This document shows, piece by piece, positions 37,076-38,503 of a DNA stretch of 51,200 nucleotides. The DNA comes from Escherichia virus TH26. Numbering within the stretch: position 1 is the first letter of the stretch; each line of letters opens with the position of its first letter. Where the stretch lies: the sequence record MT446400.1. The stretch is one strand, 5' to 3'. A program made the position numbers and the translations under genes. The notes under the pieces are model-generated. The model was given only the letters and a program-made list of their open reading frames with translations. It did not search any database and was not told the origin of the DNA.

Positions 37076-37235
37076 GCGATTTAATCTCGATAGATTCTTT
37101 TAACGAATCGAATTGCTTCTCTTTGGCTTCCTGACGCTCCTCGGCTTTGCCTGAGCTTTTGCCCTTGAGGAACACTGCAATGAGAATACCCAATGCAGTC
37201 AAGACGCCAAGAAATATTGACTTAAGCTGTTGCAT
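36999..37235 (-). CDS. Inner-membrane spanin-like protein (i-spanin candidate)
   Basis: 78 aa; N-terminal transmembrane helix (IFLGVLTALGILIAVFL) followed by a charged, coiled-coil-like segment. Confidence 0.45.
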   Translation of the reverse strand: MQQLKSIFLGVLTALGILIAVFLKGKSSGKAEERQEAKEKQFDSLKESIEIKSHVQKEVSSSSDSNVDSELLSKWVRK

Positions 37236-37399
37236 GAATCACCTTAGATGGCGCACGCACCACTTGAACAGTCGTTATCGCCAGCACCAGGAACGATTGC
37301 TTCTTCGTCCTGCTTCTTCTTAAGTTCTTCAATCGCCTCTTCGGCAGCACCGAAGTCCAAATTGTCTAGTGCGTCAATGTCCATGAGGACTCCATGTTT

Positions 37400-37495
37400 G
37401 TTGTTGAGAGTGGCGGACGAGGTTGGATTCGAACCAACGACACATCTGTCTTACAGATTGCTCTACCTGACTAAGCTCTGGAGCAGACCTTCTGA
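37400..37495 (-). tRNA. tRNA gene (96 nt with encoded CCA) carrying a ~19-nt insertion in the D-arm region; anticodon not confidently assigned
   Basis: Minus-strand sequence has a 7-bp acceptor stem (GGACGAG/CTCGTCC), a T-arm GTTGG-TTCGAAT-CCAAC, discriminator G plus CCA, D-arm elements GCTCAG...GTCAGGTAGAGC, and an extra hairpin AAGGTCTG-CTC-CAGAGCTT. Confidence 0.55.
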
Positions 37496-38164
37496 GCTAC
37501 TCGTCCAAAGAATAAGAGGGGGGTTTTGATAACGCAGGTTTTCCCGAACTGCGAGGCTTGTAGCAAGACAGTCGCATTACTTTGCGAATGCCAGCAGGAT
37601 TGATGGTCCGACCGTCTTTGCTTAGGCAACCTGATTTAATCTACCTTTGTAGATACCATCGGTTATGAGCAGTTTATTTCCATGCTCAGGGCAATTCACT
37701 TTAGGCGAATTAAGTTTGTACCTTGTCACACCCGCACGCACCTGGGGGGCTTAAGTCTGCATTACATCGCAAGATACAAATTAATTGGCTCTCCGATTTA
37801 TTAATCACATCTCGGAGAAACAATGCGCCAAATTTGGTTACATGGGATTGGAAGACCACGGAGAGGACTTAAATTTAATTAAGCCGCAACTCGCATTTCA
37901 GAATCATTTGCACTTGTGTTTAGTGTTTAAAACAGTCGCAATAACTTCAGGCAGTTTAGGCCCGTCGTAAGACTCAGAAAACTACTTCAATTTGTACACA
38001 ACAAATTTCCCAACATTGGCTTCCGTCGAAGGCTCATGCGATGGTGTTTGGATTATGCACAAATTGAAACCCACTCACTCGGAATGGATTCAAGGCAGCA
38101 CCGGAAATCTTCCAGTGCATGCCAGATCGATTTAGCTTAGTCTCTCAAGTTTGCCATCGGCAAC

Positions 38165-38503
38165 TTAGAATACAGGAGCTTCTTCCACAGCAGCTTCAGC
38201 AGCTTCAACTACTTCTGCTTCGGCAACTTTGACTTCTTTCGGAGTATCGAACGCAACACGTTCAACTTCCGGGCAACCAGCTTCAACCCACGGCAGATAG
38301 AATGCCAGGAACGCAGCAGCGGTGTTCATCTGCATGGAGCGAGAACGGTCAATCAGCTTGTTGGTGTTAGCAAACGCTTCAACAGCAGCATCAATTTTAG
38401 CACCGTTTTCCAGTTTGAAATCGTGTGCGTTACACTCAGCTTCGCTCAGGAACAGGGAACCATCGTTAGCTTCGTACTGAGTTACGGTTACAATCTTAGC
38501 CAT
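38165..38503 (-). CDS. Hypothetical protein with acidic Ala/Glu-rich C-terminus
   Basis: 112 aa ORF preceded by a conserved promoter-like motif. Confidence 0.35.
   Translation of the reverse strand: MAKIVTVTQYEANDGSLFLSEAECNAHDFKLENGAKIDAAVEAFANTNKLIDRSRSMQMNTAAAFLAFYLPWVEAGCPEVERVAFDTPKEVKVAEAEVVEAAEAAVEEAPVF

Follow-up and report, generated by a model that had tools for sequence, protein, structure and literature searches.

A strongly conserved, probably non-decoding tRNA-like element in a tmRNA-like RNA locus of GJ1-like coliphages

The genome of Escherichia virus TH26 (MT446400.1), a Carltongylesvirus (Chaseviridae) with ~92% identity to phiEcoM-GJ1, carries a 96-nt tRNA-like gene that is strongly constrained and, judged from its anatomy, is unlikely to decode. 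We analyzed a stretch of 51,200 nt from this record, hereafter the window. The gene itself has been on record, as a questionable tRNA-Arg, since 2008. What is new is its description as a constrained yet apparently non-decoding element, the rejection of the idea that it contains an intron, and its membership of a locus resembling those of transfer-messenger RNA (tmRNA). We tentatively favor the reading that the element is a tRNA-derived, non-decoding module with a structural and processing role in an RNA locus of the tRNA/tmRNA type.

A previous reading of the letters alone (the sequence-only reading) had placed a tRNA gene with an intron-like insert at 37400-37495. The feature exists; it is, however, on the minus strand, and the gene begins 11 nt outside that interval. 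Read 5' to 3' from 37506 to 37411, the gene is GGACGAG TA GCTC AG-AAGGTCTGCTCCAGAGCTTAG-TCAGGTA GAGC A ATCTG TAAGA CAGAT GTGTC GTTGG TTCGAAT CCAAC CTCGTCC G CCA, with the following parts.

37411..37506, minus strand: tRNA-like gene, 96 nt, terminating in G73-CCA, located by Rfam RF00005 and by orthology with GJ1
37506-37500 and 37421-37415, minus strand: acceptor stem, perfect, 7 bp (GGACGAG/CTCGTCC)
Between acceptor and D stem, minus strand: T8 and A9
37497-37494 and 37463-37460, minus strand: D stem, perfect, 4 bp (GCTC/GAGC)
Between the D-stem strands, minus strand: D loop, made up of AG, AAGGTCTGCTCCAGAGCTTAG (37491-37471) and TCAGGTA
37471..37491, minus strand: insert of 21 nt within the D loop (allele A), AAGGTCTGCTCCAGAGCTTAG
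Between D stem and "anticodon" hairpin, minus strand: a single nucleotide, A26
37444..37458, minus strand: 15-nt "anticodon" hairpin ATCTG-TAAGA-CAGAT, with its 5-nt loop at 37449-37453
After the "anticodon" hairpin, minus strand: variable loop GTGTC
37422..37438, minus strand: canonical T arm GTTGG-TTCGAAT-CCAAC, invariant but for T/C at the final loop position
After the acceptor stem, minus strand: discriminator G73, then the encoded CCA at 37413-37411

The sequence-only reading had described the acceptor stem, T arm and CCA end as canonical, and GGACGAG/CTCGTCC, GTTGG-TTCGAAT-CCAAC and GCCA are all present. Given the pairing of GCTC (10-13) with GAGC (22-25), every residue expected from the rules of tRNA tertiary contacts is also in place (U8, A14, G15/C48, G18G19 and G46). 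Rfam RF00005 matched the gene end to end with 41.5 bits (E 1.8e-5; gathering threshold 29), placing 24 nt in a D-loop slot modelled as 2 and 4 nt in an anticodon-loop slot modelled as 6. The D loop between GCTC and GAGC is 30 nt long, compared with ~7-11 nt in canonical elongator tRNA. This bears out the claim that the region from acceptor to anticodon arm is too long by ~20 nt, the excess of 20-21 nt being located in the D loop. ARAGORN reported no tRNA or tmRNA gene across the whole 51.2-kb window, and minimum-free-energy folding cannot pick between models of the RNA, the alternatives being within 1 kcal/mol of one another.

The gene was gathered from 30 genomes and contigs, which yielded 13 distinct sequences. 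In their alignment 74 of the 96 columns are invariant, and variation is focused on the insert and the 5-nt loop. The invariant core, which covers what an L shape and RNase P require, includes the 7-bp acceptor, the T loop TTCGAAT, U8, A14, G15/C48, G18G19 and the encoded GCCA. Mean pairwise nucleotide diversity, calculated over 28 genomes, was distributed as follows.

67 body positions of the tRNA-like gene: 0.021
Insert: 0.128
5-nt loop: 0.139
Leader: 0.20
26-nt trailer: 0.31
Third codon positions of the next open reading frame (ORF): 0.27, slightly inflated by an insertion in three genomes

The body of the element is about 10-fold more conserved than the flanking DNA, indicating strong constraint, and all Carltongylesviruses examined have the element at one and the same site. 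The 5-nt loop has four alleles. Most genomes carry TTCGA, the window shares TAAGA with PYps16N and FXie, Bp7 and JL1 have TTAGG, and TH29 has TCGAA. The TH29 loop is the exact reverse complement of TTCGA, that is, a hairpin-loop inversion, and the "anticodon" stem around it is invariant. The window, GJ1, ST32, PYps16N and FXie have G as discriminator and the remaining genomes A, and the tail is CCA or CCC. Within the genus there are no compensatory changes among the base pairs of the gene, and one acceptor pair alternates between G-C and G.U.

The "anticodon" arm has 15 nt instead of the canonical 17 and can be drawn as 5 bp with a 5-nt loop or as 4 bp with a 7-nt loop. The sequence-only reading had called the anticodon loop ambiguous, which was correct and understated. 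When the loops are read as G-U-NNN-R-C, TTCGA gives UCG (Arg), TAAGA gives AAG (Leu), TTAGG gives UAG (Leu) and TCGAA gives CGA (Ser), so that Arg, Leu and Ser anticodons occur on otherwise identical bodies without a long variable arm. Position 20 is U, not A20, which E. coli ArgRS uses as an identity element. The element agrees with canonical elongator tRNAs in its Rfam score above threshold and in its acceptor, T arm and NCCA end, and departs from them in D-loop length, in lacking a 17-nt arm and a conserved anticodon, and in going undetected by ARAGORN. With an arm this short and a loop this variable in otherwise identical genes, the RNA would be non-decoding whatever the fate of the insert.

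The insert itself occurs as two main alleles. Allele A, AAGGTCTGCTCCAGAGCTTAG, is found in the window and most genomes, and allele B, AAGGTTTGCATTGTGCTCAG, in GJ1, ST32, SKA49, DE15 and Bp10. They differ at 8 of 21 positions without compensatory changes. In addition, TH24 carries a point change in the insert and SA91KD a 7-nt deletion adjoining it. The sequence-only reading held that removal of the extra segment restores a canonical D arm; indeed, ARAGORN calls a 75-nt tRNA after in silico deletion of the 21 nt, a call that requires dropping position 26 and placing an A.G pair (27-43) on top of a 4-bp stem. The accompanying claim that the insert is a hairpin holds for allele A, which folds with 7 pairs and one mismatch (-6.2 kcal/mol), and fails for the GJ1 allele, which is unfolded (-0.8 kcal/mol, z +1.18). 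Even the fold of allele A does not exceed chance expectation (z -0.74, with 42 of 200 shuffled versions equally stable), and a conserved hairpin was rejected on these grounds.

The proposal that the insert is an intron or is otherwise processed out was likewise rejected: the insert is too small and in the wrong position, it shows no splice signals and no bulge-helix-bulge fold, and its two alleles are structurally unrelated. With 20-21 nt it is far too short for a self-splicing group I intron, whose core has hundreds of nucleotides, and the site is not the anticodon loop. No intron family matched the locus of the tRNA-like gene in the Rfam scan. No bulge-helix-bulge was found at the insert junctions; the predicted fold of allele A is a plain mismatched hairpin, and allele B is without structure. 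We know of no bacterial mechanism for excising a 21-nt D-loop insert, and to our knowledge the enterobacterial host has no splicing endonuclease of the archaeal type. Archaeal tRNA introns at noncanonical D-loop positions are cut by the splicing endonuclease at bulge-helix-bulge motifs (PMC3241643). They resemble the window insert in being short and in the D-arm region of a tRNA gene; in contrast to them, the window insert has no predicted bulge-helix-bulge, and its alleles have no conserved structure.

D-loop inserts at this position are common in viral sequences. A scan of IMG/VR with the pattern GTAGCTCAG-N16-40-GGTAGAGC gave at least 120 matches, and many of the matches listed were unrelated viral tRNA-like genes whose D loop carries a clean hairpin at the same spot. 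ARAGORN recognized 46 of 93 listed matches after deletion of the insert versus 20 of 93 with it, often assigning 6- or 8-nt anticodon loops, and Rfam showed only tRNA at these loci, often in arrays. As in the window element, the insert lies between AG (14-15) and GG (18-19), and anticodon loops of other than 7 nt are frequent (for example, L043, L112, L155, L162, L168, L181 and L214); such genes are seen by Rfam and usually not by ARAGORN. They differ from the window element in having clean hairpins and in standing mostly in tRNA arrays, and they share no sequence with it. That inserts are common here indicates that the site tolerates expansion. No report on D-loop-expanded phage tRNAs was found in a limited literature search, and IMG/VR pattern searches for distant homologues of the tRNA-like gene itself gave only known Carltongylesviruses or unrelated matches. 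Members of the D-loop-hairpin class include L043, L112, L155, L156, L162, L165-L168, L172, L176-L182, L185, L187, L194 and L195, among others, with further loci at L200, L214, L217, L219, L222, L223, L243, L250, L252 and L253. In this class the insert is a clean hairpin of 17-22 nt placed before G18G19, the anticodon loops are often GAA-rich, and L155 adjoins a GOLLD RNA.

The tRNA-like gene lies in an ORF-free locus which, by alignment among Chaseviridae relatives, is a mosaic of swappable modules. No sigma-70-type promoter site was found in 37200-38400. The features of the locus and its downstream neighbor are as follows.

37385..38164, minus strand: ORF-free modular RNA locus, 780 nt; the upstream ORF stops at 38165 and the next ORF starts at 37384
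38071..38087, minus strand: hairpin H1 (CCAUUC/GAGUGG), at the position of the T arm in permuted tmRNA, with a variable, non-T-like loop
37984..38069, minus strand: module 1, a swappable arm with UUUCAAUUUGU/ACAAAUUGAAG as its closing helix
37972..37983, minus strand: UAGUUUUCUGAG, corresponding to the D-loop motif of tmRNA, which in L031 is UAGUUUCGAUUG
37879..37911, minus strand: tmRNA-like tag frame GCA AAT GAT TCT GAA ATG CGA GTT GCG GCT TAA, encoding ANDSEMRVAA and a stop
37868..37885, minus strand: helix-5-like hairpin containing the tag stop codon (CUUAA/UUAAG)
37791..37867, minus strand: conserved post-tag block GGUCUUCCAAUCCCAUGUAACCAAAUUUGG, with the hairpin CUCCGA-..GAUUAAUAA..-UCGGAG
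37533..37553, minus strand: leader hairpin CGCAG-UUCGGGAAAAC-CUGCG, ~27 nt ahead of the 5' end of the tRNA-like gene
37244..37384, minus strand: ORF for an acidic 46-amino-acid product, with a GGAG Shine-Dalgarno sequence, starting 27 nt past the CCA end

The tag of this locus resembles the E. coli SsrA tag, ANDENYALAA followed by a stop. The peptide ANDSEMRVAA is unchanged across Chaseviridae genera (Fifi44, L271, L273, L274, L277 and L280 included), Faunus alone showing V to M and A to V, and third positions vary at codons 2 and 7-10. Among the 12 nt left free by the search pattern, 4 of 4 third positions and none of 8 first or second positions vary. The overlapping +1 (ATG) frame is not conserved and has an early stop in L273. 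Five codons upstream of the tag the window has an in-frame stop, and no start codon intervenes. The hairpin holding the stop codon is CCUAA/UUAGG in Faunus, which is one compensatory pair. The leader hairpin has a diversity of ~0 over the 28 genomes and is also present in Erwinia phage Faunus; L280 has CCCAG..CUGGG, again a compensatory change. The post-tag block recurs in DS8, in PGN829.1, in SP116 (Felix O1-like) and in L017, whose permuted tmRNA is bona fide, and the stem of the block's hairpin covaries between GJ1 and the window. The tag is under selection, and an acceptor domain of its own is not recognizable.

Related tag modules were found in other enterobacterial phages.

Felix O1-like SP116: tag ANDNVFLAVA and a stop, within the tRNA cluster, past a TTGACA..TATAGT promoter-like site and ~120 nt before tRNA-Arg(UCU)
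Shigella phage DS8: tag ANDDVVLMAA and a stop, within the locus at L282 574-1230
N4-like PGN829.1: tag ANDDVILMAA and a stop, within the locus at L283 540-1250

In DS8 and PGN829.1 the tag module is followed by ~200 nt of shared pseudoknot-like sequence and then by aberrant tRNA-like elements ending in ACCA. The unannotated tag module is common to four unrelated groups of well-studied enterobacterial phages. Surveys of phage tmRNAs do not include this locus for these phages (PMC4131195; PMC9004378), and no report of a tmRNA in Felix O1-like or GJ1-like phages was found in a limited literature search.

The window tag module shares with tmRNAs a resume codon, the absence of a start codon, an SsrA-like hydrophobic ..AA end and a stop-codon hairpin. 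It is like the phage tmRNAs of Rfam RF04321 and RF01850 and Melnitz (PMC9004378) in its SsrA-like tag and GCA resume codon, its A/U-rich lead-in, the placement of the stop codon in a hairpin and the permuted-type sequence after the tag. Unlike them, it has no G3.U70 acceptor, T arm or ACCA in the expected places, and it and its relatives score 16.9-30.7 bits against a threshold of 47. With RF04321 the window scored 16.9 bits, and DS8 and PGN829.1 scored 27-31 bits (E ~1e-3); in the latter two phages the beta_tmRNA model aligns the tag plus the subsequent CCUUGUAACCAAA helix. ARAGORN at default settings reported no tmRNA for the tag module. An alanine-type acceptor domain (T arm, G3.U70 and ACCA), in standard or permuted order, was found in none of the enterobacterial-phage loci by a script that recovers the G3.U70 domain of L017 as a positive control.

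Aligned with L031 and L017, module 1 falls where a permuted tmRNA has its intervening segment and acceptor helix, and it has neither G.U nor ACCA. Other Carltongylesviruses have a different arm at this site, and flopper has both. An 82-nt block of the arm (37977-38059; L281 1801-1882) is 80% identical to an unannotated spacer of the Felix O1-like tRNA cluster. The sequence CCUUCGACGG in module 1 was considered as the tmRNA D-loop motif and rejected; it is a hairpin tip with a conserved GACG loop, whose stem covaries between Felix O1-like phages and GJ1.

For comparison, two IMG/VR phage contigs carry textbook permuted two-piece tmRNAs that ARAGORN missed (L031 7330-7670 and L017 5720-6260). 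Their tags are ANDEVYALAA and ANDSEYFPALRLAA, each followed by a stop, and both have G3.U70 and ACCA. The order is T arm, 3' strand with ACCA, intervening hairpin, 5' strand with G3.U70, UAGUUUCGAUUG and tag. A tRNA stands 85-170 nt downstream of the coding piece, tRNA-Thr in L031 and tRNA-Ser in L017.

All loci with a tag module end in a tRNA or an aberrant tRNA-like element. The elements of DS8, PGN829.1, Faunus, Fifi44, L274 and L280 have a 7-bp acceptor helix, with one C.U mismatch in L274, and a canonical T arm in divergent sequences. Their tails are of the NCC(A) type save in Fifi44 and L274, where AGCA follows the acceptor strand. The middles differ widely, from ~100 nt in Faunus to 55-65 nt in PGN829.1, and the L280 form has no anticodon arm. 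Retention of the top half despite divergent sequences and middles indicates that only the top half is maintained across lineages. The Erwinia Chaseviridae carry more aberrant tRNA-like elements, in Faunus (L270 2764-2847, 3125-3225 and 3228-3335) and in Fifi44 (L269 2841-2960 and 4664-4733). One Erwinia element is enclosed by the helices CUUUAGUG/CACUAAAG and AAGAGAG/CUCUUAA, and its acceptor and T stems covary among Fifi44, Faunus and L274.

Under the processing reading, the element would have retained the top half and core of a tRNA (acceptor, T arm, D stem with G18G19, variable loop and encoded GCCA) and would form the last module of a noncoding locus of the tRNA/tmRNA-cluster type. The anatomy, the pattern of conservation, the variability of insert and loop and the surroundings are observed; transcription, cleavage by RNase P and a role in processing are what we infer. 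Host tRNA-processing enzymes would recognize the element; RNase P would cleave at the 5' end, and the tail would undergo 3' trimming or CCA repair. A long transcript would be cut at a defined place, giving the upstream tmRNA-like RNA a defined 3' end and parting it from the downstream mRNA of the lysis region. The 21 extra nt between positions 15 and 18, which face solvent in tRNA, would be a tolerated expansion and no intron, and the 5-nt loop would be unconstrained. On the simplest reading, only the top half would matter, as a handle comparable to the ordinary tRNAs behind true phage tmRNAs. In mitochondrial tRNA punctuation, MALAT1/mascRNA and the processing of tRNA operons by RNase P, a tRNA shape at a junction sets RNA ends, and the decoding parts of that shape are dispensable. 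The window element, known here from its sequence, may be likened to these systems by resemblance only.

Several observations weigh against this reading. The D stem, "anticodon" stem and variable loop are also invariant though RNase P needs far less, which suggests a requirement exceeding a mere cut site. The 5-nt loop changes by several nucleotides at a time, a pattern more suggestive of selection or templated mutation than of simple neglect. Minimum-free-energy folding gives no clear answer for the central part of the RNA, and, with no covariation within the genus, the case for the fold is one of homology to tRNA, not of independent evidence. The conservation of the D and "anticodon" stems, together with the jumpy evolution of the loop, leaves room for a role as acceptor or decoy.

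It is possible, though unlikely, that the element is the acceptor partner of the tmRNA-like RNA, serving a new topology of trans-translation as a 5'-extended molecule or as two associated pieces. The tag is under purifying selection, yet an alanine-type tRNA-like domain is found nowhere in the locus, and each lineage with the tag module ends the locus in a tRNA or aberrant tRNA-like element. Moreover, the 5' part of the tRNA-like element is copied upstream of the tag in PGN829.1 (12 nt, CCGGUGUAGGUA) and in DS8 (UUGUGGUG, also at the tRNA-like element). Opposed to this, the window element has A3-U70 instead of G3.U70 and, unlike the tRNA-like domain of tmRNA, a full 4-bp D stem. Its acceptor stem is closed locally and its "anticodon" arm is a closed hairpin, leaving no helix, P2 or other, to link it to the tag region. 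GGACGAG has no distal copy upstream of the tag in the window, and no covariation was seen between insert allele and upstream sequence. A 5'-extended tRNA is expected to be a poor substrate for EF-Tu and the ribosome, and the downstream gene in the Felix O1-like phage is an ordinary tRNA-Arg. A one-piece tmRNA, in which the T arm and 3' strand of the tRNA-like gene would pair with a distal 5' strand, was rejected, since the window has no GGACGAG-type partner; the only distal candidates form 6 of 7 pairs with up to three G.U, inside hairpin H1. More doubtful still is the general form of the idea, in which the GJ1-like, N4-like (PGN829.1), DS8-like and perhaps Felix O1-like phages would share an unrecognized form of tmRNA with a tag template lacking an alanine-type acceptor and the terminal tRNA-like element as acceptor. 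If true, it would be a new topology of trans-translation, possibly delivering an amino acid other than alanine.

We also regard as unlikely the proposal that the element is a tRNA mimic acting as a decoy or sponge for tRNA-targeting defense nucleases or for a tRNA-binding factor, with the loop and insert diversifying. Such a role would fit an invariant body whose loop shifts by multi-nucleotide steps in at least three lineages, and in many unrelated viral tRNA-like genes a hairpin in the D loop goes together with anticodon loops of 6 or 8 nt. A precedent for titration is mycobacteriophage DS6A, in which a tmRNA consisting only of the tRNA-like domain is thought to titrate SmpB (PMC4131195). 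Four loop alleles are, however, too few to tell selection from drift, and one of them is a plain hairpin-loop inversion, a mutational event.

The remaining explanations are less likely than the processing, acceptor and decoy readings. That the gene is a decaying, functionless pseudogene, the relic of a tRNA cluster, would account for the defective anticodon arm, the insert and deletions in the D loop (SA91KD), the contradictions among tRNA predictors and the several aberrant elements in relatives. It is improbable in view of the 10-fold conservation of the body over 28 genomes, the retention of the element at one site throughout the Carltongylesviruses examined, and the syntenic elements of other genera, which preserve the acceptor and T helices through complete sequence turnover.

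Quite improbable, too, is a view along the lines of the sequence-only reading, that this is a working decoding tRNA (Arg in GJ1 and Leu here) whose D-loop expansion is tolerated or is removed after transcription. The Rfam score exceeds the tRNA threshold; without the insert ARAGORN gives tRNA-Leu(AAG) or tRNA-Arg(UCG); the 7-nt-loop reading retains U33 and purine 37 in all four alleles; and some viral D-loop-insert tRNAs, such as Thr(GGU) in L043, hold a normal 7-nt anticodon loop. Against these points, the stem would have only 4 bp, or else position 26 would be absent with A.G at 27-43, and the anticodon identity shifts among Arg, Leu and Ser on an unchanged body. The Arg element A20 is missing, as is the long variable arm that Leu or Ser would call for, the insert alleles have no structure in common, and bacterial excision of such an insert is not known.

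A class II tRNA-Leu(CAG), with GCTC/GCTT-AGTCAGGTA-GAGC as anticodon arm and ATCTG-N5-CAGAT as long variable arm, is the least credible: ARAGORN at default settings calls exactly this fold for the GJ1 allele (95 nt, CAG at position 37), the loop would be U33-CAG-G37 as in tRNA-Leu, and the freely varying loop would be that of the variable arm, but it was rejected, given that the D stem forms 2 of 4 pairs, the anticodon stem has an A.A mismatch (GJ1), ARAGORN rejects the window's allele, whose stem is weaker still (U.G and A.A), SA91KD deletes the presumed anticodon loop, the window discriminator is G and not A73, and five unpaired nt follow the "variable arm."

The orthologue in the GJ1 record (NC_010106 14456..14550, gt01) is labeled "tRNA-Arg, may contain an intron," which matches the sequence-only reading's mention of a GJ1-like phage tRNA with a short putative intron. 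In the ST32 paper the orthologue is a 95-bp tRNA-Arg "without an intron" (PMC6266442). These published records handle the gene as an ordinary tRNA. The GJ1 and ST32 genes share with the window the site, acceptor, D stem, "anticodon" stem, variable loop and T arm; they carry insert allele B and the loop TTCGA ("Arg"), whereas the window has allele A and TAAGA ("Leu" by the same reading). In other records the orthologue is unannotated, overlaid by a hypothetical protein, or given as a 71-nt tRNAscan call beginning within the insert. Papers on these therapeutic-candidate coliphages count the gene as a tRNA, which would be wrong, together with any codon-usage arguments resting on that count, if it is non-decoding. 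The element would then be a compact, experimentally tractable example of a tRNA fold under strong selection for a purpose other than decoding.

Some minor observations concern related loci. In L273 (337-768) an ORF for a homing endonuclease with HNH_3 and AP2 domains (Pfam) lies inside the GAUUAAUAA hairpin, with hairpin sequence duplicated on both sides. The product of the very acidic, conserved 46-amino-acid ORF ends in CSSGACAI and matched no Pfam family; the ORF precedes the spanin region. TH23, TH28 and TH33 (L150, L151 and L152; ~254-323) have an extra insertion of ~110 bp immediately 3' of the tRNA-like gene, which holds a second aberrant tRNA-like sequence called by ARAGORN as "tRNA-???" with a 2-base anticodon. 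The 71-nt tRNA-Arg annotation, with its start within the insert and a mismatched acceptor, occurs in Ecp_YSF (L002 1593-1663) and Pel53 (L133 191-261). Pel53 is labeled as a Staphylococcus hyicus phage, and its locus is ~91% identical to the coliphage locus.

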